Of a stretch of 64,000 nucleotides of DNA, positions 226-37,585 are shown in pieces. Made by a program: the position numbers and the translations under genes. Where the stretch lies: the IMG/VR virus record IMGVR_UViG_3300035182_001152; one strand, given 5' to 3'. This stretch comes from a virus (Duplodnaviria > Caudoviricetes). The notes beneath the pieces were generated by a model, which worked only from the letters and a program-made list of their open reading frames with translations, ran no database searches and was not told the origin of the DNA. Positions within the stretch are counted from its first letter, which is position 1, and each line of letters starts with the position of its first letter.

Positions 226-1122
226 ATGAAATACATCCTTGTTCGCCAAGGAGGTAATCGTGCTTCTGCCTTCTCAGACATCGTTGAGCAGGTCAATTAT
301 CAAGACGTACCCCAGGTTGGCTTCTACACGCAAGTAGCACCGAGTATGCGGTTAATTCGTAACCGCACTACCGACAATCACGATTCCCCCTTTGCGATTG
401 CCCGATTCCACGTCGACCCAGCACTGAAGGTCCAGCCTCCGTCACACTTTCGTCGAATTGACATGAGGGCTGTCGAACGGATGATGACAAACCACAAGTA
501 CGTGATATACGGTGTCGTCAATCCAACTCACCACGTAATTGATCACACAGTCCTTGACGGTGCTGTGTACGTCGCGCGGGATGCTGACGGTAAGTTGATC
601 AATGCCCAAACAGGAGATGTCCTTGGTGACTCCAAGGTAACGTTTATGACGGTGTTCTTTGCGTTTGTGCGCGTCAAGGGGTTGCCGATCTATCTGATGG
701 TACTCAATCCAAATCTACTCAGTGCGACGGATGGGTTTGATTGTTATCACGAAGAAACGGACACCAAGTGGATCATGTTGCCGGAACGTGACAACGCGCT
801 GATCGAGCGAGTGTTTACGCCGCAAATATATGACGGCACGTTGATTGGTAATGTGATTGTGCGCGATGAGGGTGATGGACAGCCGATGATCCAACTGTTC
901 AACGATCCATGCGGCATCCTGTACGACGAAAAGCACCTTCGCTCTGATGTGTTCATTAACGGTGTCGCAACGATTGATACCAATCTAAGCGTGTTTACAA
1001 TGGACGGCGCTGTCCGCATTAGCAGTCAAGGCCGTGGGTACGTTCGAATTGTATTTGACCTTGGTGACTACTTCAATCTGTCACGGACCGAACACCCTGC
1101 ACTGGAGTACGTCGTACTATGA
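226..1122 (+). CDS. Hypothetical protein in rSAM operon (298 aa)
   Basis: Long ORF, ATGA overlap with next gene; no family recognised. Confidence 0.8.
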   Translation: MKYILVRQGGNRASAFSDIVEQVNYQDVPQVGFYTQVAPSMRLIRNRTTDNHDSPFAIARFHVDPALKVQPPSHFRRIDMRAVERMMTNHKYVIYGVVNPTHHVIDHTVLDGAVYVARDADGKLINAQTGDVLGDSKVTFMTVFFAFVRVKGLPIYLMVLNPNLLSATDGFDCYHEETDTKWIMLPERDNALIERVFTPQIYDGTLIGNVIVRDEGDGQPMIQLFNDPCGILYDEKHLRSDVFINGVATIDTNLSVFTMDGAVRISSQGRGYVRIVFDLGDYFNLSRTEHPALEYVVL

Positions 1123-2789
1123 GCACAGCTGTCATTAAGTTCTACCCAAAGCGAACACTAACGCAAGCCCAACAGCAACGGATTGTTGATCACCAACCTT
1201 CCGTGCGAATCAATGACGACGGCACATTTGATACGTCTGTCCGCACAATCATCACCCCAAAAGGCGATGTCAAGGAGGTGTCGTATAAGACGATTCGTCC
1301 AGGTGTGCACGAGCGAATGATGAAGACAGCTGACGTATATGACTTGTTTGAAGACCTTCAACACATGAACCTGATTGTCACAAACGCGTGTAACCTCAGT
1401 TGTTCCTACTGCTACGAGCAGCATAACAAAGATTACGGTCGATTCACAAACGAAAGCCTAAAACAGCTATACAACTTCCTCGTCGCGTGCAACCCAAACA
1501 GCGGCAAGCTGTTTCAGTTCTTTGGTGGCGAACCCCTGATCCACAAGCAGTTGATTCTCGATTTTATCGCCAAATATCGTGACGAACTGCAGGCAAACAG
1601 TAAGACAACTGCCGTTAGCATTATCACCAACGGTATTCTGTTAACGCCAGAATTCATCAACGAGTACTTTGCGAATGACTTCGTTTGTATGAGCGTTAGC
1701 CTCGATACGGATGATGCTGAGATTGATCACCGTGAGATTGGCCAGGCTCGGATCGACAAAATCATCAACATGATTGGTCTAATCCCCTCGTACCACAAAG
1801 ACAATCATATGGTTAGCGTCCGTTGCACGATCGCAATGGAGAATGCTCCGCGGCTAGTTGAGTTCGCCAAACGCTTGTATGACAAGGGTCTTCGAGCAAT
1901 GGTAATTCATCCGCTGACGATGAGTTCCGTTAACGGCCACATGATATGGAATACTGAAGATTGGAACAACCTCCACACTAGCGTTAGCCACATCATCAAG
2001 ACGCTGCCTAACTTCGAGGTTCAATTCTCAGAGGGTGTCGGTGCCAAGGGCGGCAACAACTGCATGGTTGGTTCTGACATGATCGCTGTTGACGCGTCGG
2101 GTGATTACTCCGGTTGCCATTTCTTCACAAACCAGAAGGAGGCGGCCGCTCATACGATCCTTGGTAACTTGCTGCTGGACCAAGTGTACGTTGACCGGTA
2201 CATGAAGTTCCAAGAAACGTACGACCAGATGTTCACATCGGAGCCACAATGTCAAGCCTGCGATCTCAAGGGTTTCTGCTACCAATGCCCTGCAGGCAAT
2301 TCTGATTCTGGTCGTGGCCAGCTGTTCCGGCCAGACGATATGTGCCAGAGCATTGTACGTCTGTTCCTCGAACTGCAGAATGACATCGTGCGCAAGACAT
2401 TCAACGCTAAGCTACAGGAGCTGATTGGTTCTGTACAGCAGTACGGTGAACACTATGTGTTCAGTAAGGCAATTGTACACCTCCACCACTTCTACAAGAA
2501 TGGTCAGCATGCCACTGACGTTCAAGTTGATCCCAACCTCCCATACGAATACCTCGCCGCCGGTTTTATGGCAACAATTACCGGTGGCGACGCTAGCGTT
2601 CCGGTTGACATCAAGAGTTTGTATGAGGCGTTGATGCGCAGTAAGGGCAAACCAGTTAACGCGAGTATGGCACAGGGTACAGCTGATGACATCAACAAGC
2701 GTATCTTCTACCTAGCCCTACTACACATGGTTGTGCTGAACAAGAAGGGTGATGACTTGTCAAAACCGCACAAAATCATTAAGCTGTAA
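1119..2789 (+). CDS. Radical SAM/SPASM maturase
   Basis: CNLSCSYC, GGEP, ITNG, VSLD; SPASM Cys set CMVG..DASGDYSGC and CQACDLKGFCYQC..C. Confidence 0.93.
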   Translation: MSTAVIKFYPKRTLTQAQQQRIVDHQPSVRINDDGTFDTSVRTIITPKGDVKEVSYKTIRPGVHERMMKTADVYDLFEDLQHMNLIVTNACNLSCSYCYEQHNKDYGRFTNESLKQLYNFLVACNPNSGKLFQFFGGEPLIHKQLILDFIAKYRDELQANSKTTAVSIITNGILLTPEFINEYFANDFVCMSVSLDTDDAEIDHREIGQARIDKIINMIGLIPSYHKDNHMVSVRCTIAMENAPRLVEFAKRLYDKGLRAMVIHPLTMSSVNGHMIWNTEDWNNLHTSVSHIIKTLPNFEVQFSEGVGAKGGNNCMVGSDMIAVDASGDYSGCHFFTNQKEAAAHTILGNLLLDQVYVDRYMKFQETYDQMFTSEPQCQACDLKGFCYQCPAGNSDSGRGQLFRPDDMCQSIVRLFLELQNDIVRKTFNAKLQELIGSVQQYGEHYVFSKAIVHLHHFYKNGQHATDVQVDPNLPYEYLAAGFMATITGGDASVPVDIKSLYEALMRSKGKPVNASMAQGTADDINKRIFYLALLHMVVLNKKGDDLSKPHKIIKL

Positions 2790-3577
2790 TGATGAAAACA
2801 ACACACATTGCATTTTACCAAGACGCTCTGTACGACTGTCCTCTTCTCCGTGGTCAGGTGCTAACCGATATCGACGACCTGCGACTGTTCATGGAATATC
2901 ACGCATTCGCAGTGTGGGATTTCATGTCGCTGATCAAATCGCTCCAGAACCATATTGTACCGTCGGGCAATGTGTGGCTTCCGTCACCCGAATCGACAGC
3001 TGTTGGTCGATTGATCAACGAAATTGTCCTGTGCGAGGAAACAGACGACAACCTCGGCGGTGGTCATATTAGCCACTTCGATCTGTACATCACTGCGATG
3101 AATGAAGTTGGCGCCAACACAAAGCCGATCCTGTCATTCATCAACAAACTGCGAACCAATCGCAAGCTCAGCTTAAACCAGTTGCTGCTAGAACTCCCTC
3201 TGCCAGCACGGAAGTTCTGTGAGAGTACTTTTGCAGTAATTGCTACCGATCAACCCCATAAGATTGCCGGGGCGTTCGCCTTTGGTCGCGAACGGGTAAT
3301 CCCGTCAATGTTCACGCAGATCCTCTCTCAGATGGAGGCCACTGGAATCCAAGCACCAAAGTTCAAGTACTACCTTGAGCGTCACATTGACGTTGACGGG
3401 AACGCACACGGCCCAGCTGCGCTTGATATGGTTGATTATCTGTGTGGGGATGACCCAGTCAAGCACCTGGAAGCGGAACGAGCTGCATTGGATGCAATCC
3501 ACGCTCGGATCACGCTATGGAAGGACGTACAGCGAGTGATTGAAGACGTCAAGCGTGTCAAGTTTGGAGCAGCATGA
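2789..3577 (+). CDS. DUF3050 family heme-oxygenase-like (putative diiron) oxidase
   Basis: Motifs FMEYHAFAVWDFMSLIKSLQ, EIVLCEETD, SHFDLY, FGRE, YYLERHIDVDG..HGP. Confidence 0.85.
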   Translation: MMKTTHIAFYQDALYDCPLLRGQVLTDIDDLRLFMEYHAFAVWDFMSLIKSLQNHIVPSGNVWLPSPESTAVGRLINEIVLCEETDDNLGGGHISHFDLYITAMNEVGANTKPILSFINKLRTNRKLSLNQLLLELPLPARKFCESTFAVIATDQPHKIAGAFAFGRERVIPSMFTQILSQMEATGIQAPKFKYYLERHIDVDGNAHGPAALDMVDYLCGDDPVKHLEAERAALDAIHARITLWKDVQRVIEDVKRVKFGAA

Positions 3578-4647
3578 CGACACCAACACTCTCCGGATGC
3601 AAGAATATCAGCATCTACCTCGGCAATGTTTGCAACTTCAATTGCACATATTGTGACAGAGACTACATCAAGGAGTCGATCGGTGGTCAACATATGACCA
3701 CCGAGGATATTCCAAAGATCGTTGAGTTCCTCCAAGCTTCTGGTATAGCTGACAACCCCCCGGAAATGTTTAGCTTCCATGGTGGTGAGCCGTTCACATA
3801 CGTCAAGATCATGGACAAAATCATGGACGCAGTAACGTCAGCTGTCCCTGGCGACTATCCGCTATACATTCAAACGAATGGTAGCCAGATGCTTCAGCAT
3901 CGATGGTTCTTTGAGAAGTGGGGTAGTCGCCTTGAGATTAGCATCAGCTACGACTTCTTGTACCAAGACATTAACCGCACCCTGTTTGAGATCAACCCTA
4001 CGCTGGAAATGTTGAACCAGAACGGTGTTCGTGGAATCCAGTTCCAATACGTGATGCCAATCTCTAATCCGAAGGTGTTTAGCCTATCAGCATTGAAGGC
4101 GATCACTAACTTGTGCCACAAGAACGGTGTCAAACGGGTTAACCTAATCCCACTGCGGCACATTCGGGGCAAAGACAAGTTCAAGGTGATCCTTGACGAC
4201 CTTGATATTCCACAGTTCTTCGATGCGTTCATCAAGTTCATCCACATGCTGTATGTGATGAACATTGACGTTACAGTTGATGGTCACGGTGTTGGATTTG
4301 ACAAGCACTATTTCTACAACCATAAGTTAATGGTGTTGTCACCAGATGGTAACATCTATCCCGAATACGACTTCCTCGAATACAAGCGCGAAGAGACGAT
4401 CATCGGTCAGTGGCGAGAGCAGCAAGTTATCGAGCGTGTCCGTGATAATGAAGATGACATGCTGCAACCGAAGTGTGTTACGTGCCCATCCCGCCCACTG
4501 TGTGGGCTAAAGTACTTACATGGGATGTTTGGTACTGACCCAGCAACGGATAAGTGTGCGCAGTTCTATCAGATGCTGATGGTTACGATCCAGCACGCAC
4601 AAAAACTAAAACAACAACCAAGCTTCTTGCATTGGGTCGGAATATGA
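3574..4647 (+). CDS. Radical SAM protein with partial SPASM
   Basis: CNFNCTYC, HGGEP, QTNG; C-terminal CVTCPSRPLC..C; DGNIYPE instead of DGxxYPC. Confidence 0.9.
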   Translation: MTTPTLSGCKNISIYLGNVCNFNCTYCDRDYIKESIGGQHMTTEDIPKIVEFLQASGIADNPPEMFSFHGGEPFTYVKIMDKIMDAVTSAVPGDYPLYIQTNGSQMLQHRWFFEKWGSRLEISISYDFLYQDINRTLFEINPTLEMLNQNGVRGIQFQYVMPISNPKVFSLSALKAITNLCHKNGVKRVNLIPLRHIRGKDKFKVILDDLDIPQFFDAFIKFIHMLYVMNIDVTVDGHGVGFDKHYFYNHKLMVLSPDGNIYPEYDFLEYKREETIIGQWREQQVIERVRDNEDDMLQPKCVTCPSRPLCGLKYLHGMFGTDPATDKCAQFYQMLMVTIQHAQKLKQQPSFLHWVGI

Positions 4648-5828
4648 CAACAGAACAACGGCACTTCACACCCAGTGTACAGAACGTAACGAACTTCAAG
4701 GAATACTTCCTACAGTACGACGGGTTGAATCACGTCAGCCAAGAGCTTGGCTTTTCCCTGTTTAAGCGGTACACGTGTAAAGCAGGATGCAAGATGTGTT
4801 ACTTGCAGAACGACTGGATCGCTGACGAAGACTTCGGTATCTTCATTCCAAAGGAAATTGACGATCACACTGAAGCTCGCCTTTTGTCATTCTTTGAAGC
4901 GTTTTCTGACGTCGGCACGTATGATGATTTGGCATATTTGAAACGAGCGCACCCACACCTGTATGAGTTCTACAAGAAGCACAGCCACCGCCTCGTTAAT
5001 ACATCAATGTCAGACACCGCTTTCATTCAGCAGTACCCACTGCTGATGAATGAGCTCAACTTCAAGGGAATCTACGAGATTACGTTTAGTGATGTGTTCC
5101 TAAACAAAAAGAGTGGTGGCTTAGCGCATGATATAGTCAATATGCTGAAGCCTCTCCACGCAAAGATGCCCCTGCTAAAGATCAAGGTTGTACGAATCAC
5201 ACAGGAAGGTGAGAAGTCTGATGCCGTCAAGAAGGTCGTCGACTATGCACACAGTATTGGCATAGCAGTTGGCCTGCAAGACGATATCGTCAAGGGCGAC
5301 AACAACAAGTTGAGCCTTGATGTTGCTGACTACCAAGAGCTGAATTATTTCGCTCAAGGGTCTGAGCCGATGCAGGTCCTATCAGAGATTACCTACCTGC
5401 AATACACGTCGTCGTTTATGACCCTGACCGACACAGTATCGCCAACAAGTGTTCCATTCTTTGATGTATTGTCAACGGACGACATCAGCGTATTCCTGTA
5501 CAACTCCTTAGATGCTAAGTTAAAGACGTACACCCGATACACCAAGGAAATGGATAACACATGCGGCAACAAGCTGTTCGACTACTTTGCGTACGTATCA
5601 ACGTCGGTTGTGCTACATCCAAAGTTTAACTTCATCCCCCGGATGTCGCTGAAGCCGTGGACGGCAATGTACCATAAGCTGATAGCTCAGGGTTGGACGG
5701 AGACCAAGCTTGGTCTGTATCGACCGAACGGTGAGCCAGTGACACCAATCTTTACGATCAGCACAAAGCCAAAGCAGAAAATCTATCACATCCCAATCAA
5801 GTGCACTCCTGTAGGAGCAACTGTATGA
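4644..5828 (+). CDS. Divergent radical SAM-like protein
   Basis: CKAGCKMC motif; start moved to ATG 4644 (ATGA overlap); no SPASM Cys set. Confidence 0.7.
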   Translation: MTTEQRHFTPSVQNVTNFKEYFLQYDGLNHVSQELGFSLFKRYTCKAGCKMCYLQNDWIADEDFGIFIPKEIDDHTEARLLSFFEAFSDVGTYDDLAYLKRAHPHLYEFYKKHSHRLVNTSMSDTAFIQQYPLLMNELNFKGIYEITFSDVFLNKKSGGLAHDIVNMLKPLHAKMPLLKIKVVRITQEGEKSDAVKKVVDYAHSIGIAVGLQDDIVKGDNNKLSLDVADYQELNYFAQGSEPMQVLSEITYLQYTSSFMTLTDTVSPTSVPFFDVLSTDDISVFLYNSLDAKLKTYTRYTKEMDNTCGNKLFDYFAYVSTSVVLHPKFNFIPRMSLKPWTAMYHKLIAQGWTETKLGLYRPNGEPVTPIFTISTKPKQKIYHIPIKCTPVGATV

Positions 5829-7111
5829 GTCTGACCAAATTTGAGATCGTTCGCACAGGCGAACATTTCTACTACAACAACGAGAACAACGGCTTGCTGG
5901 ACGCCAACGGTAACAGCCTTAGCCGTGCTTTTGTACCCCCAGCTGATTGGAATCAGCTGGAAGACCGATTCGGTCGCACAGATGTTGTCAAGAACCCCGA
6001 AACAATCAAGATCACCCTGGGGCACGGTTGCAATTACAGTTGTGGCTACTGCATGCAAAAGGACATTGGCAATCCCGACGAGCGACCGGTCAATGGTCTA
6101 ACACCAATGCTGATCAGCAAGATCCGCCGCCACCTGGATCTGTCTGAGACGACACGGATTGAACTGTGGGGCGGTGAAACGCTACTGTATTGGAAAGACA
6201 TGATGCCGATCATGGAAGAATTTGATCGTGAGGGAGTTACTTGGTACATCCCAACCAATGGTACTCCCCTGATGCACAAGCACATTGACTTCTTCATGAG
6301 GTTGAAGGGCAGGGTTGCAATGGGGATCTCTCATGATGGGCCTGCGCATGAGATTACGCGAGGCAAGGAGTTCCTGCACAAGAAGGTTGACGTGTTCAAG
6401 CGGATCGAAACGGAGTGTGGTGAGCAGGTACAGTACAGCTTCAACCCCGTTATCAGTCGTACAAATTACGATCTGTTCGAGATCAACGACTTCTTTGTTC
6501 GATTCTTTGACGAGCACAGCTTGAAGTACAAACAGCTGAGTTTCGAACTCGGGCGCGTGTACGACGAGACGATGGCAAAGAACTCAACGCACCACGTGAT
6601 CAATGGTGAGCATATCCCAGCGTATAGGGACGTTCTGACGCGATACATGGATGCTCATATTGAGCAATTCCAACGGCTTGGTGGGGTTACACAAGCTCCC
6701 CTACTGGCGAACAATCTGTTCCATACAGGCATGGGCGTTCTCCCGTATGTGCGTTCGCTGCAGGAGCAAAAGGTTCCCTTGTTGAAGACGAACTGCGGGG
6801 TGGACGACAGTCGGTTGATGAGCATGGACACGATGGGCAACGTCCGCACCTGCCAAAACACCGACGAATCGTACAATGGCGGCAACTTGATGTACATCAA
6901 GGGCATTCGAATCCAACGTGTTGATCTCAATCGTGATGCACACTGTGGGTCATGTGAAGTCCGTCGTCTCTGCAAGAGCTCATGCCCACTTGACCTCGGA
7001 TCGGCAACGTTCCAAACCAATTGTGCTGTTGAGAAGACGCACTACCGGGCGATCCAGTTGGCTGCATTCAAGTTGTTGTTTGACAGTGAGATTCGCATGA
7101 TTGGCCAGTGA
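5825..7111 (+). CDS. Radical SAM/SPASM maturase
   Basis: CNYSCGYC, WGGE, PTNG, ISHDG; CGV..DTMGNVRTC and CGSCEVRRLCKSSC..C; start 5825 by ATGA overlap. Confidence 0.93.
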   Translation: MSLTKFEIVRTGEHFYYNNENNGLLDANGNSLSRAFVPPADWNQLEDRFGRTDVVKNPETIKITLGHGCNYSCGYCMQKDIGNPDERPVNGLTPMLISKIRRHLDLSETTRIELWGGETLLYWKDMMPIMEEFDREGVTWYIPTNGTPLMHKHIDFFMRLKGRVAMGISHDGPAHEITRGKEFLHKKVDVFKRIETECGEQVQYSFNPVISRTNYDLFEINDFFVRFFDEHSLKYKQLSFELGRVYDETMAKNSTHHVINGEHIPAYRDVLTRYMDAHIEQFQRLGGVTQAPLLANNLFHTGMGVLPYVRSLQEQKVPLLKTNCGVDDSRLMSMDTMGNVRTCQNTDESYNGGNLMYIKGIRIQRVDLNRDAHCGSCEVRRLCKSSCPLDLGSATFQTNCAVEKTHYRAIQLAAFKLLFDSEIRMIGQ

Positions 7112-7180: not shown

Positions 7181-8992
7181 ATGACCAATTACGTATTCAA
7201 GCACAGCGACCCTGCAGCAGGTTCGTTTCTAGTTCAAGCAGACCAGATCGACGGTACGTCGCGTCCTGGTAATGCGGCATTGTACATCAACCCCGTCTCA
7301 GGCCTCTCTGCAATCTCAGCCAATTCCTCTCTCGTCTTCGCTGGACAGGGAATTGTTGACTACGGCGAACTAGTGCAGAACAATCTGATCTACTTGATGG
7401 AGCACTTTGCCTATGCAACACGCCCTCTAAAGCCTGTACAGGGTCAGATTTGGTACAAAAACGCAGCAGGTGTAGACCCGTCCTTCCCGAGCGACCCATC
7501 TTCGGTCGGTCTTTATCTGTGGACAGGATCACTCTGGACGCCGATCATTACTGGTGCAGGCGGCGTACTTGACATGGGCGGCGCTCGTGTAGCTAACGTT
7601 GGAGATGCAATATCCGCCGGTGACGCAGTTAGCCGTGGCTACGCAGATGCACGCTACTTGCAGCTGTCTGGCGGCACAATGACCGGTGCAGTTATGGTTG
7701 CATCAGGCAACTGGACATTTAATTCCGGCGTTTCTCTGTCAGTGACAAACGCTCCGACAACCAGTTTGCATGTTGCCAATAAGGCATACGTAGACGCTGC
7801 TTCTGCCACGTCTGCCGGCCTAGTTTCTACTGAAGCTACTACCCGCGCAGCAGCTGATAGCGCACTTTCGTCCAGCATCTCTACGATCAACTCACAACTG
7901 CCAAACTTTGTTCAAGTTACTGGCGATACGATGACAGGCACACTGTCGATCGACTCTGGCGGTGGTATCGTTGCCCTCAACGGTTCCGGCACTATTAGTT
8001 TTGGCTCTCGTCGCTTGCAGCTCGTCGGAGACCCTATTCTAAACACTGACGCGGCAAACCGAATCTACGTTGATACAGCGATCGCTACGGCAATTGCGGG
8101 CGTTGGCGCTGGATCTAGTGATGGTGTAGTTGTTAGTGGTGACTTGAATTCATCAACTGGCGTGTTGACTCTTCAGCGCAGCATGGGTCTCTCAGACGTG
8201 GTTGTAGTCGGCTCGTTCGCTCCATTCTCACACGCCCACCCTGCGACCGCGGTTACATACGATCTGTCGTACGTGTATCCACAAAGCTACTTGACGACGT
8301 CGGAAGTAGGTGACACAGGCTTCCCCAATGTCCAACTGCAAGACATTATTCGCACAATTGACCAAAATTTGACGACATTGAACCGTTGCGTTGTTCGCAA
8401 ATTGGCCGTCGGCGACGGCATAACTACTACATATTCCGTAGGCGCTGTTGGTACCTACACTGTGGGAGATAATCGTCTGCAGGTGTTTGTTGATGGTGTC
8501 AAACAGTACGCTAGTGAGCACGGGATCAGCACTGTTGTATTCACAGATACGGGTATTGGATATCGATCAGTAATCCCAGGCGTCACGGGTGCGCCTCTCG
8601 TGTTCAACATCGCAGTGGACAGTGGTCCTCCAACAACTGTTTCAATTCCAACAGGGGCGGGATACACGTACTTGCAGTATTTCATTGACCTGCAGGCTGC
8701 TTTTAGTACACTGTCTATCCCTGCACAAGTTCGTGCGGACCAATTCTTTGACCGCATTGAGTTGTACTTTGTGTCCAACACTTCAGGTGCAGGATCTAGT
8801 GTATTAGTATCAAACACAGCAGGCCAAGCTTTTACTGTGATTACCACAGCGTCTGCGCCTGTTAACACGTCTGTGACAACGTCATACTCCTACAGCGAAG
8901 TCGGCAACCCTGGTGCAGATTCAACCTCCATCACATTCAACGTAGCACCTGATGCGGGTTCTGTTGTTGAATTTCTAACCTTCCCTGCTTAA
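7181..8992 (+). CDS. Virion structural / tail fibre-like protein
   Basis: N-terminal DYGELVQNNLIYLMEHFA..QGQIWY motif typical of large-phage virion proteins; three DAxxxxYVD-type repeats; Gly/Thr/Ser-rich. Confidence 0.75.
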   Translation: MTNYVFKHSDPAAGSFLVQADQIDGTSRPGNAALYINPVSGLSAISANSSLVFAGQGIVDYGELVQNNLIYLMEHFAYATRPLKPVQGQIWYKNAAGVDPSFPSDPSSVGLYLWTGSLWTPIITGAGGVLDMGGARVANVGDAISAGDAVSRGYADARYLQLSGGTMTGAVMVASGNWTFNSGVSLSVTNAPTTSLHVANKAYVDAASATSAGLVSTEATTRAAADSALSSSISTINSQLPNFVQVTGDTMTGTLSIDSGGGIVALNGSGTISFGSRRLQLVGDPILNTDAANRIYVDTAIATAIAGVGAGSSDGVVVSGDLNSSTGVLTLQRSMGLSDVVVVGSFAPFSHAHPATAVTYDLSYVYPQSYLTTSEVGDTGFPNVQLQDIIRTIDQNLTTLNRCVVRKLAVGDGITTTYSVGAVGTYTVGDNRLQVFVDGVKQYASEHGISTVVFTDTGIGYRSVIPGVTGAPLVFNIAVDSGPPTTVSIPTGAGYTYLQYFIDLQAAFSTLSIPAQVRADQFFDRIELYFVSNTSGAGSSVLVSNTAGQAFTVITTASAPVNTSVTTSYSYSEVGNPGADSTSITFNVAPDAGSVVEFLTFPA

Positions 8993-12640: not shown

Positions 12641-12752
12641 ATGATTCTCCGAGTTGCGGCTATTTATGGCACGGTTACACAGGGGGCAATACAGTATCAG
12701 GGTATTGGTGCCAGGTGAAAAAGTGCAGGTAAATATCCGAACAGGAGATTTT

Positions 12753-13373
12753 ATGGCCTTCACACTACCAAAACTTGAATACGCCCAGGACGCACTCGAG
12801 CCTCACATTTCGAAGGAAGTGGTCCACTTCCACTACGACAAGCACACAAAAAAGTACTTCGAAAAGGCCAACGAATTGGCAAAGGGCACTGTGTTTGCAT
12901 CGAAATCGCTCGATGATGTGATTTCGAAGACGTCAGTTCTCAAAATGGATACGGCGCTATTTAACAACGTCAGTCAGGCGTTTAATCATGCCTTTTACTG
13001 GAAATGCCTAGCTCCTACCGATAAGGTTGGGAAGCCATCAGAGGCGCTTGCCGAAGCGATTAAGGAGCAGTTTGAAACTGTGGCCAAATTTAAGGCAGAA
13101 TTTATCGAGCAAGCTACGAAAGCATTTGGTTCTGCATGGGTCTGGGCTGTGTTGAAGGACGGCAAGGTCCAAATTAAGACCACCCCAAATGCCAACTCTC
13201 CGCTAACTGAGCAGAACTCAATTCCGTTATTCGTGTGCGATGTGTGGGAGCATGCATGGCTGTATGATGAGAAATTTTGGGCTAATAAGCCAGCTTACCT
13301 CCAGGCCTTCTGGCATGTGTTAAACTGGAACTTTGTTAACGAGAACTTCGAGAATGCCACGACCACCAAATAA
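12753..13373 (+). CDS. sodB: Fe superoxide dismutase
   Basis: Metal ligands in HYDKH, FNHAFYW, DVWEHA; Fe-type SQAFNH and NANSP signatures; AGGAG RBS. Confidence 0.92.
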   Translation: MAFTLPKLEYAQDALEPHISKEVVHFHYDKHTKKYFEKANELAKGTVFASKSLDDVISKTSVLKMDTALFNNVSQAFNHAFYWKCLAPTDKVGKPSEALAEAIKEQFETVAKFKAEFIEQATKAFGSAWVWAVLKDGKVQIKTTPNANSPLTEQNSIPLFVCDVWEHAWLYDEKFWANKPAYLQAFWHVLNWNFVNENFENATTTK

Positions 13374-22874: not shown

Positions 22875-23270
22875 GGTGTGTATTTGGTATGCTACGGGAT
22901 TGCACCGTAACCATCGACTTAACGACTTTCGCTAGTGGTTCATCCGCTTCAGTTACGTGCATTCGCGGAGCTCTATTCGAGTTCTGTAAGAGTTGACGCA
23001 CAGAGCACGTACTAACTGGCCAACTCTAAACATTGTGCGCACGGGGACTATCGAAATCGCCTTTCACCGCTTTGCAAGCGGCACCATCACCCTTCTGGCT
23101 CGCACGCATTAAAAGCTTGCTGGTATACCAGCAACTTGGTTAGCCCGCATCTCGTTTGAGTCGTATCACTTCTTAGCTGTCGAAGGCTTAACGGCGCTGC
23201 TATTTGGGTTACCAAGCACGTGACACGAGATCGCACCATCACGTACGCACACTAAAGTGCGTTAGCTTTT
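22875..23270 (-). ncRNA. Putative structured ncRNA downstream of tRNA-Ala
   Basis: ORF-free ~400 nt with many helices and a 3' T-arm-like hairpin TACGG-tgcaatc-CCGTA. Confidence 0.5.
23036..23107 (-). tRNA. Non-canonical tRNA-Cys(GCA)-like cloverleaf
   Basis: 7-bp acceptor GCGTGCG/CGTGCGC, D arm CCA..TGG, anticodon loop TTGCAAA, T loop TTCGATA; T-stem has a C-C mismatch, A73. Confidence 0.5.
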
Positions 23271-23272
23271 TG

Positions 23273-23345
23273 TGGAGGATAACGGGATCGAACCGTTGAC
23301 CTCATGCTTGCAAAGCATGTGCTCTCCCAGCTGAGCTAATCCCCC
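23273..23345 (-). tRNA. tRNA-Ala(UGC)
   Basis: GGGGGATTAGCTCAGCTGGGAGAGC..TT TGC AA..GGTTCGATCCC; G3-U70; CCA not encoded. Confidence 0.95.
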
Positions 23346-23351
23346 AGGGGA

Positions 23352-23592
23352 CGGTGGAGGATGGGGCCGCCCATCCTCTATGCTTCGTCGGCTCCGAAGC
23401 ACACCGTGAGTCTCTCATTCTAATACAACGCTTACTGTGGAAGGTTGCCCTTACGCCCGAATGAGTTAGGCCCAAGTCATTATCAGTTCCGTACGTCAGA
23501 CTTGGAATTGAGTACGAGAACATCGGCTTTGGTGTCATCTACCGACGGGGTGGTCAGCTTGCGCTGCTTAACACGAGACTTTCATCTCCACC
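23352..23592 (-). ncRNA. Putative structured ncRNA leading tRNA-Ala
   Basis: Terminal helix GGTGGAG/CTCCACC, at least six internal helices, directly after a sigma70 promoter. Confidence 0.55.
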
Positions 23593-23601
23593 AGTTCGTT
23601 A

Positions 23602-23630
23602 ACTATAACGGTTACCTATTTATCCGTCAA
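23602..23630 (-). promoter_or_regulatory. Sigma70-type promoter TTGACG-17-TATAGT
   Basis: Near-consensus, overlaps 3' end of macro-domain gene. Confidence 0.75.
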
Positions 23631-36215: not shown

Positions 36216-37415
36216 TTATGACAGATGGATCCGAGCGAAATTTCGCTTACCTACTTGCATCACGTAGGTGCCTGGTTCGATCACGCGCCTTTTGTCTTGC
36301 TCGACCACACCGTCGATGCGGATCCCACGCTGTTCGATCTTTCGCCCGGCTTCAGACATCGAGGGGCACAGGCCAGATTCCTTTAGCAAGGATGTGACAG
36401 GACGAGCGCCGCCTGATGCATAGAAGTCGCGCACTTCTGCCGGAATTCCACCGTTAGAACGGTTGACAAAGTCGTCATGCGCACGATCTGCCAGTTCTGC
36501 GGAATGGAACCGCGTAACCAGTTCTTTTGCAAAGGTGACCTTGATGTCTCGGCAGTTGACATCAGAACGACGAACAAGGGCTTGCGCGACCAGCTGTCCG
36601 TTACCGCTGAGCAGCGGAATCCAATCCCACATCAGCTTGTCGCTGATTGCCATCACCTGCGAGAACATCTGTTCGGGTGGCGTAGCAACACCGATGTAGT
36701 TGTTCTTCGACTTCGACATCTTGTGCGTGCCGTCCGTCCCGACCAGCAGCGGCATCGTCAGAATGCACTGCGGAGATAGCCCGTAGGCTTCTTGCAGCTG
36801 ACGACCAACCATCAGGTTGAACGTCTGATCTGTGCCACCGATCTCCAAGTCCGCATTGAGTGCGACGGAATCGTAGCCTTGTAGCAGGGGGTACAGGAAC
36901 TCGTGGATGCTAATTGGAGTTTGAGCCTGCAGCCGCTTGGCGAAATCGTCCCGCTCAAGCATTCGAGCGACAGTGTGCTTGGCAGCGAGTTCGACCAGCC
37001 CACGTGCACCAAGCGCGTTGCACCACTCGCTGTTCCAGCGGACCTCCGTCTTCGATTGGTCGAGCACCTTCCACGCTTGATCGCAGTACGTCTCCGCGTT
37101 CAGTTGAATCTGATGGTGAGACAGTACCGGTCGGGTGGAGTTGCGGCCAGACGGATCGCCAATCGCGGCTGTGAAGTCACCGATTAGCAGAATTACCGTA
37201 TGCCCAAGATCCTGCAGTTGCCGTAGCTTCTGCAGGACGACGACGTGCCCGAAGTGAATGTCGGGAGCGGTTGGGTCGAACCCGAGCTTGATCCGAAGCG
37301 GCACGCCGGTCTGTTGGGACTTCAGCAGCTTCTTTTCCCACTCGTCGCGCGGCGTCAGAGAGACGCTACCCGCGATAGTGGTCATGAACGGTTGTTCAAC
37401 AGCCGGGATGATCAC
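36216..37415 (-). CDS. tyrS: Tyrosyl-tRNA synthetase
   Basis: KLGFDPTAPDIHFGH (HIGH), YPLLQGYD, GGTDQ, KMSKS, C-terminal S4 domain; GTG start by GTGA overlap. Confidence 0.93.
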   Translation of the reverse strand: MIIPAVEQPFMTTIAGSVSLTPRDEWEKKLLKSQQTGVPLRIKLGFDPTAPDIHFGHVVVLQKLRQLQDLGHTVILLIGDFTAAIGDPSGRNSTRPVLSHHQIQLNAETYCDQAWKVLDQSKTEVRWNSEWCNALGARGLVELAAKHTVARMLERDDFAKRLQAQTPISIHEFLYPLLQGYDSVALNADLEIGGTDQTFNLMVGRQLQEAYGLSPQCILTMPLLVGTDGTHKMSKSKNNYIGVATPPEQMFSQVMAISDKLMWDWIPLLSGNGQLVAQALVRRSDVNCRDIKVTFAKELVTRFHSAELADRAHDDFVNRSNGGIPAEVRDFYASGGARPVTSLLKESGLCPSMSEAGRKIEQRGIRIDGVVEQDKRRVIEPGTYVMQVGKRNFARIHLS

Positions 37416-37585
37416 ACGCCGTCCCTGAACAGCTTGACGAGTCCGACGATCACGGTTATGCCAAACAGCATGTAGAAGCCGAACACCACTCCTGCGCCAA
37501 TCAGTGCGCCCGTCAGGAACGCGCTGCAGCTCAGACCACCAATAAAGGCGCCGATTGCAGCGCCTGCACACATCCATTTCAACAT
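37412..37585 (-). CDS. Small membrane protein
   Basis: Gly/Ala-rich hydrophobic, AGGAG RBS. Confidence 0.6.
   Translation of the reverse strand: MLKWMCAGAAIGAFIGGLSCSAFLTGALIGAGVVFGFYMLFGITVIVGLVKLFRDGV

Follow-up and report, generated by a model that had tools for sequence, protein, structure and literature searches.

A conserved structured RNA of about 140 nucleotides in the tRNA operons of jumbo phages

Downstream of a tRNA-Ala gene in an uncultured jumbo phage, a stretch of 396 nt (positions 22875-23270 of the window, i.e. of the 64,000 nucleotides of viral DNA analysed here) raises the question of which product, if any, it specifies. An earlier note, made from the sequence alone, had described the stretch as a single structured RNA of ~400 nt, free of ORFs and containing a degenerate tRNA-Cys(GCA) cloverleaf. 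That it holds no credible gene was borne out, as no frame stays open for more than 54 codons; no gene was called at 22875-23270 in the source assemblies either. Flanking the 745-nt gap that contains the stretch are a macro-domain gene (24116-23616) and an 87-codon orphan ORF (22871-22608); stretch and genes alike are on the minus strand. The same proteins are found on JGI contigs of 174 and 206 kb, and the closest cultured matches to the phage proteins, in Stenotrophomonas CM1/RAS14 and Ralstonia RsoM2USA, show only 39-45% identity. Elsewhere, the window contains a gene for a tyrosyl-tRNA synthetase with an S4 domain (36216-37577, minus strand) and at least three radical SAM genes in a row (1119-7111, plus strand).

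The features of the gap, and of one additional element found in relatives, are listed in Table 1. The TAAATA word of the promoter-like site is located at 23622-23617, and similar sites occur at the same place in five relatives (L090, L093, L096, L139 and L145). Motif A, a conserved non-Rfam RNA upstream of tRNA-Ala, extends to about 23410 and is also present in L090, L092, L095 and L100-L105; the loop of its covarying 8-bp stem holds GUACG, a possible pairing partner of an invariant CUCGUAC. A match to motif A in an Aeromonas phage was antisense and inside a gene, and was dismissed as chance. One of the phages carrying motif A also has a tRNA with a CUA anticodon, a possible amber suppressor (L100, 2972-2897, minus strand). 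The palindrome between tRNA-Ala and the cloverleaf is weak on its own, as the scan found three sites of this type where 2.1 were expected.

Table 1. Coordinates of the features described in this work (positions in the window unless a relative is named)
Feature	Position	Strand	Basis
Promoter-like site of the operon, with boxes of sigma-70 type and an internal TAAATA word	23602..23630	-	10/12 consensus matches
Motif A, a conserved pseudoknot RNA distinct from motif B within the same operon, outside 22875-23270	23472..23518	-	10 copies aligned, covarying stem
tRNA-Ala(UGC), canonical, no encoded CCA	23272..23345	-	ARAGORN; Rfam 67.3 bits
Unassigned non-coding segment after tRNA-Ala, hairpin at 23262-23245	23135..23271	-	folding z -0.29; no homologue found
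Perfect palindrome of 18 nt with a short run of U after it; not conserved, terminator-like or processing hairpin	23117..23134	-	scan
Degenerate cloverleaf, GCA anticodon, no encoded CCA	23036..23107	-	ARAGORN at lowered threshold
Motif B, conserved ~140-nt structured RNA gene	22891..23027	-	covariance-model match 22883-23034; 15 distinct copies; covariation
P1 hairpin of motif B (stem 23027-23020/22996-22989), variable sequence, loop is the 5' kissing strand	22989..23027	-	6/6 counted pairs change both sides
Kissing-loop pseudoknot, 23011-23005 (UACGUGC) with 22960-22954 (GCACGUA)	22954..23011	-	loop-swap test; six versions
P2 (22980-22973/22935-22929), near-invariant, enclosing variable P3 (22970-22965/22947-22941)	22929..22980	-	pairing, compensatory changes
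Invariant core, putative P4 hairpin GUCG/CGAY, loop UNNAGU	22913..22926	-	invariant columns
P5, terminal hairpin, T-loop-type UGCAANC loop	22891..22911	-	5/5 pairs change both sides
Motif D	L098 3920-4000; L139 2673-2755; L148 8708-8790; L149 6982-7055		

Syntenic relatives were located through homologues of the macro-domain protein, and only the last ~140 nt of the ORF-free stretch, named here motif B, proved to be conserved. Motif B was present in all seven relatives whose contigs cover the slot, whereas the first 240 nt were present in none of them. A search with patterns built on its core yielded seven further distinct copies from IMG/VR and metagenomes, all adjoining tRNA genes; the invariance of the core in these pattern-found copies is partly by construction, a bias of which the seven synteny-found copies are free. 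In all, 15 distinct phage copies and two tandem paralogues were identified, every one of them in a tRNA locus, the paralogues being second, divergent copies in L092 and L145. Identity to the motif B of the window is 53-71% among the 12 aligned copies, and one of the relatives that carry it has a complete genome of 350 kb. Three copies that had been absent from model building scored 115-131 bits and retained the helices and the loop-loop contact described below. A single RNA of ~400 nt is unsupported, because the 5' 240 nt, including the cloverleaf, are without counterpart in the relatives. The whole 396 nt folded little better than shuffled controls (z -1.52; 9/100 shuffles). What stood of its proposal is a conserved, covarying structured RNA beside tRNA-Ala, but one of ~140 nt.

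Motif B has no entry in the catalogues that were searched. With Rfam 15, the proposed database check, the window and its relatives gave only tRNAs at the gathering and E<=10 thresholds (two relatives' loci at E<=10), and blastn of the region and of two divergent motif B copies against 50,697 phage records gave nothing credible. Among 12 cultured phages (T4, three T4-like phages, RsoM2USA, Phosso, RAS14, XacN1, Xoo-sp13, RaK2, XaC1 and GAP32), the sole match to model R1, of 17 bits, lies inside a coding gene of RsoM2USA and was taken as chance. Pattern searches of GTDB found first nothing and then two weak matches (17-21 bits), which were rejected as they have neither the T-loop hairpin nor the kissing arms. 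In an acidobacterial MAG, a long perfect inverted repeat with core words of motif B (L175, about 7850-7950) likewise has no T-loop hairpin or kissing arms and was treated as unrelated. Beyond the known copies, a relaxed viral pattern retrieved unrelated matches only, the loci reached through a QueD-like gene were not informative, and a literature search for the core words of motif B returned nothing relevant. To judge by these searches, together with the alignments that follow, motif B is a family without a catalogue entry, present in jumbo-phage tRNA operons and endowed with a well-supported fold.

In alignment A3, 90% of the cells of the helices are paired and 20 of 33 pairs change on both sides, a result reached by none of 500 shuffles, although kinship alone can let related sequences outdo shuffled pairs. 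When the partners were slid, pairing fell to 34-43%. A3 was fitted to the nested part of the structure, so that its pair counts lean towards that structure; the unfitted alignment already had both-side changes in P2 and P5. The covariation among relatives that the earlier note had suggested looking for is thus present, and two of its helices are among those concerned: GAGTTG/CAACTC is the strongly covarying P1 (95.8% of cells paired), and the terminal T-arm-like hairpin at 22911-22891 is P5, which is real and covaries as well. P2 is paired in 98.8% of cells, with compensatory changes in L093 and in both paralogues, and the P3 stems fold in each copy. For P4, which is weakly tested, the pairing evidence is a change from G-U to G-C only. 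The invariant ACU ahead of the 3' strand of P2 is a candidate partner for the invariant AGU in the P4 loop. A third helix of the earlier note, TGCAC-GTAAC/GTTAC-GTGCA, fared less well. It can form in this phage, but only 2 of the 15 family members have a strong version of the matching duplex, and the helix takes up bases needed by the conserved kissing loop and the T-loop hairpin.

The kissing loop is not part of the model to which A3 was fitted. In a loop-swap test on 12 copies, cognate loops had a mean energy of -10.3 kcal/mol versus -7.3 kcal/mol for permuted loops (p 1e-5), and with one copy per version (five independent versions) the true pairing ranked first of 120; a sixth version was found in the held-out copy from L145. 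Nested folding of the copies was no better than that of shuffles (mean z 0.09), which is expected for a pseudoknotted RNA and gives no support. The comparative data thus support well a structure in which a kissing loop holds two variable hairpins together around a near-invariant core and a T-loop hairpin. Neither a conserved acceptor stem nor a closing stem or CCA was found after P5, where the 3' tails differ among the copies, and motif B is therefore not the mimic of a whole tRNA.

Kissing loops of this kind might also pair between molecules, which would make motif B a self-assembling RNA forming dimers or rings, a miniature counterpart of the GOLLD and ROOL cages. A perfect palindrome of 4 nt is found in four of the six kissing-loop versions (expected by chance in 18-23% for each; a post hoc observation), the invariant GUCGAY is self-complementary, and palindromic kissing loops bridge the subunits of GOLLD and OLE (PMC12286853). 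Yet two versions have no palindrome, the loops co-vary as a heterologous pair, of which an intramolecular kiss is a full explanation, and the RNA has about a sixth of the size of GOLLD; we regard self-assembly as improbable.

The locus turned out to be modular, as motifs A, C and D, tRNA-Ala, motif B and HNH genes occur in differing combinations among the relatives. As read from these arrangements, the jumbo-phage clade shuffles at least four RNA modules around tRNA-Ala. In L140, motif B has a tRNA about 5 nt away on either side, and in L096 the distances are 6-7 nt. In 7 of the 15 copies its start lies within about 10 nt (about 3-10 nt) of the 3' end of a tRNA, the distances being estimated with a fixed offset, and in the window it lies 8 nt after A73 of the cloverleaf, which brings to 8 of 15 the copies near a tRNA or tRNA-like 3' end. 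The distance to the upstream tRNA is about 3-12 nt in some copies and 76-419 nt in others, and L095 has no upstream tRNA. Because its neighbours vary and it elsewhere sits alone between tRNA genes, motif B appears to act as a gene of its own, and very probably it is an independent structured RNA gene.

Several other elements were observed around tRNA genes of the relatives. Motif D is a conserved element of ~80 nt directly before motif B, 72-84% identical in four phages and absent from the window. Motif C is non-coding, with alternating conserved and variable segments (L095, about 12700-12790, and upstream of tRNA-Ala in L097 and L098). In L141 (1204-1110, minus strand), motif B is directly preceded by an odd gene that resembles a tRNA and has an 8-nt CGCA anticodon loop. 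ORFs of HNH type abut tRNA-Ala or tRNA-Pro in four relatives (L092 10845-11253, L148 8240-8630, L149 6495-6875 and L090 13080-13490). In L090, a copy of the 5' half of tRNA-Pro is followed by the HNH gene and then by the intact tRNA, a layout which suggests that the HNH genes were inserted at tRNA genes.

The modular arrangement bears on the proposal that the locus specifies one large, ornate RNA of GOLLD or ROOL type, of 400-730 nt and with embedded tRNA-like domains, of which the Cys cloverleaf would be a functional part. ROOL RNAs are about 600 nt long. Many GOLLD RNAs exceed 800 nt, and their linkers sometimes contain tRNAs (PMC12286853). Like motif B, both are phage-encoded, found near tRNA islands and equipped with kissing loops (PMC12286853), but they are far larger than this modular RNA of ~140 nt. 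A single promoter appears to drive the whole 730-nt gap and the cloverleaf exceeds what chance gives, as would befit one long RNA. Against it, modules A, B, C, D and tRNA-Ala occur separately and in different combinations, an HNH gene splits tRNA-Ala from motif B in L092, no conserved helix between modules was seen, and the GOLLD and ROOL family models found no match in the window or its relatives even at E<=10. With a conserved unit of ~140 nt, the large ornate RNA of the earlier note is a decidedly improbable reading.

At the other end of motif B, the 87-codon ORF begins about 20 nt after it in the window, and this proximity, together with the aptamer-like size and the pseudoknot, would fit a cis-acting, riboswitch-like leader of the next gene. 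Yet what follows motif B differs among the copies; in L096, L098 and L140 it is a tRNA gene at a distance of 5-24 nt. No conserved expression platform was seen either. We consider a leader function extremely unlikely.

The GCA cloverleaf reported at 23107-23036 is present, with its A73 at 23036. Each of the four arms can be formed at standard spacing, with UUGCAAA as the anticodon loop and UUCGA kept in the T loop, but A8, A15/G48, a C50.C64 mismatch in the T stem, U53-G61 and A73 are defects. With the relaxed cutoffs suggested earlier, ARAGORN did call it at thresholds of 90 and below, although as a 'possible pseudogene', and no match to the Rfam tRNA family (RF00005, which needs at least 29 bits) was obtained at E<=10. 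At threshold 90, any call was made in 5 of 3000 shuffles of the 237-nt insert, and shuffled 64-kb windows gave 1.45 calls each. As this is more than shuffles give, the cloverleaf is probably derived from a tRNA rather than a product of chance. Exact and degenerate patterns and BLAST found no homologue of the cloverleaf or of the insert in the relatives examined. Of 222 tRNAs, the one that the cloverleaf matches best is an atypical tRNA-Ala in L101 (score 42; mean 31, sd 2.7), a weak hint only. The idea of an array of tRNA mimics fits only this one cloverleaf, which is shared by no relative, and the cloverleaf is probably a pseudo-tRNA specific to this phage. A call by ARAGORN of a 520-nt tmRNA was also rejected, since it appeared only at threshold 80 among 202 mostly spurious calls and its supposed acceptor ends are not conserved.

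The earlier note had called the Cys anticodon notable in a phage that makes a cysteine-rich peptide and many Fe-S proteins. As a working, divergent tRNA-Cys or a deliberate anticodon decoy, the cloverleaf might support the synthesis of such proteins. Like bacterial tRNA-Cys, it has a GCA anticodon in a 7-nt loop and four arms with standard spacing, and several radical SAM genes are present in the window. Cysteine identity, however, needs U73, and G15-G48 is also a determinant (PMC9976931), where the cloverleaf has A73 and A15/G48. Unlike bacterial tRNA-Cys it also has A8, U53-G61 and the C.C mismatch, stays below detection thresholds and is not conserved. Furthermore, five relatives (L090, L093, L095, L148 and L149) carry the same Fe-S biogenesis gene next door without a cloverleaf at the locus. 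A role in cysteine supply or as an anticodon decoy is very unlikely on these grounds, and the cloverleaf is, in all likelihood, not a working tRNA-Cys. The anticodon loops of tRNA-Ala (UUUGCAA; 23316-23306) and of the cloverleaf (UUGCAAA; 23079-23069) are exact reverse complements, which follows naturally from the anticodons being UGC and GCA; the two loops could kiss within one transcript. On balance, the region seems to be the 3' half of a jumbo-phage small-RNA operon consisting of the promoter, motif A, tRNA-Ala, a phage-specific insert ending in the pseudo-tRNA, and motif B.

Motif B was then compared with known phage RNAs. RNA C and RNA D of T4 come from a tRNA region and have no known role (PMC3014915). 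Like motif B, they (rnaC/rnaD, also species 1 and 2 RNA) are non-coding genes of 120-140 nt in a phage tRNA operon, and RNA C has a T-arm hairpin at its end; they have tRNA-like 3' ends, whereas motif B has no conserved CCA or acceptor stem. Covariance models R1 and R2 gave no match on T4 rnaC/rnaD, and a PWM and an HMM on five T4-like loci did no better than shuffles. A likeness to RNA D noticed by eye, the shared 7-mer AAGUCGU, failed three homology tests. The same 7-mer also occurs in the 16S decoding strand, but mimicry of the A site by motif B was dropped, as the partner strand of AAGUCGU is not conserved in motif B. By these comparisons, T4 RNA C/D are the closest analogues of motif B in size and place, and not its homologues. 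A supposed likeness to raiA was discarded as well, RF03072 matching neither of two records of phages carrying motif B.

Small ribozymes typically have a size like that of motif B, an invariant core, and variable arms that a contact between loops holds in place. Motif B has all three, and might be a self-cleaving or tRNA-processing ribozyme of a new class, which would trim the trailer of the upstream tRNA or split the transcript of the operon, in the manner of theta ribozymes in gut phages. The position of its start near a tRNA or tRNA-like 3' end in about half of the copies and the missing encoded CCA, a trait of the tRNA-Ala genes of this clade, would suit such a function. Its commonest terminal loop, UGCAAGC, is letter for letter a hairpin loop of the twister-sister ribozyme (PMC7373991). 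This loop is the sole feature shared with twister-sister, as the GCAA and GCUCA internal-loop strands are absent from motif B alignment A5 and there was no Rfam match, and T-loops are common in non-catalytic RNAs. Theta ribozymes, which are minimal and HDV-like, resemble motif B in being small, pseudoknotted and located 3' of phage tRNA genes (PMC10879173). They have a nested double pseudoknot and nearly fixed spacing, 77% of the tRNA-associated ones lying within 1 nt of the tRNA (PMC10879173), whereas motif B has two kissing hairpins and two 3' hairpins at no fixed distance from the upstream tRNA. No HDV-type nested pseudoknot and no match to an Rfam ribozyme at E<=10 were found in motif B. 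A ribozyme is rather unlikely, and so, to the same degree, is motif B as the founding member of a new catalytic class in which a kissing-loop scaffold and a T-loop docking hairpin would process the tRNA operons of jumbo phages.

The mechanism that we prefer, tentatively, is that motif B acts in trans as a ligand or decoy, a possibility suggested by its genomic context and its pattern of conservation. Motif B would be co-transcribed with the tRNAs from the upstream promoter and freed when the adjoining tRNA or tRNA-like units are cut out during their maturation; in the window, the degenerate cloverleaf may serve as processing punctuation. The freed RNA would be a stable, compact particle, in which the variable arms would form the scaffold, and the invariant core and the T-loop the binding surface. 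The putative target of this surface is a conserved host protein related to tRNA or translation, such as a translation factor or a defence nuclease that attacks tRNAs; motif B may decoy or modulate this protein during infection. It would work like T4 RNA C/D, without homology to them.

No cultured phage with motif B was found, which limits genetics, but at ~140 nt the RNA can be made in vitro and assayed directly for cleavage, oligomers and partners. Ever since the description of T4 RNA C and D, the small stable RNAs of phage tRNA operons have been without an assigned role, and motif B adds to them a family with six natural versions of its kissing loop and with natural paralogues. Should the proposed decoy function be true, motif B would represent an RNA-only counter-defence, and should it instead be a ribozyme, a new catalytic class.
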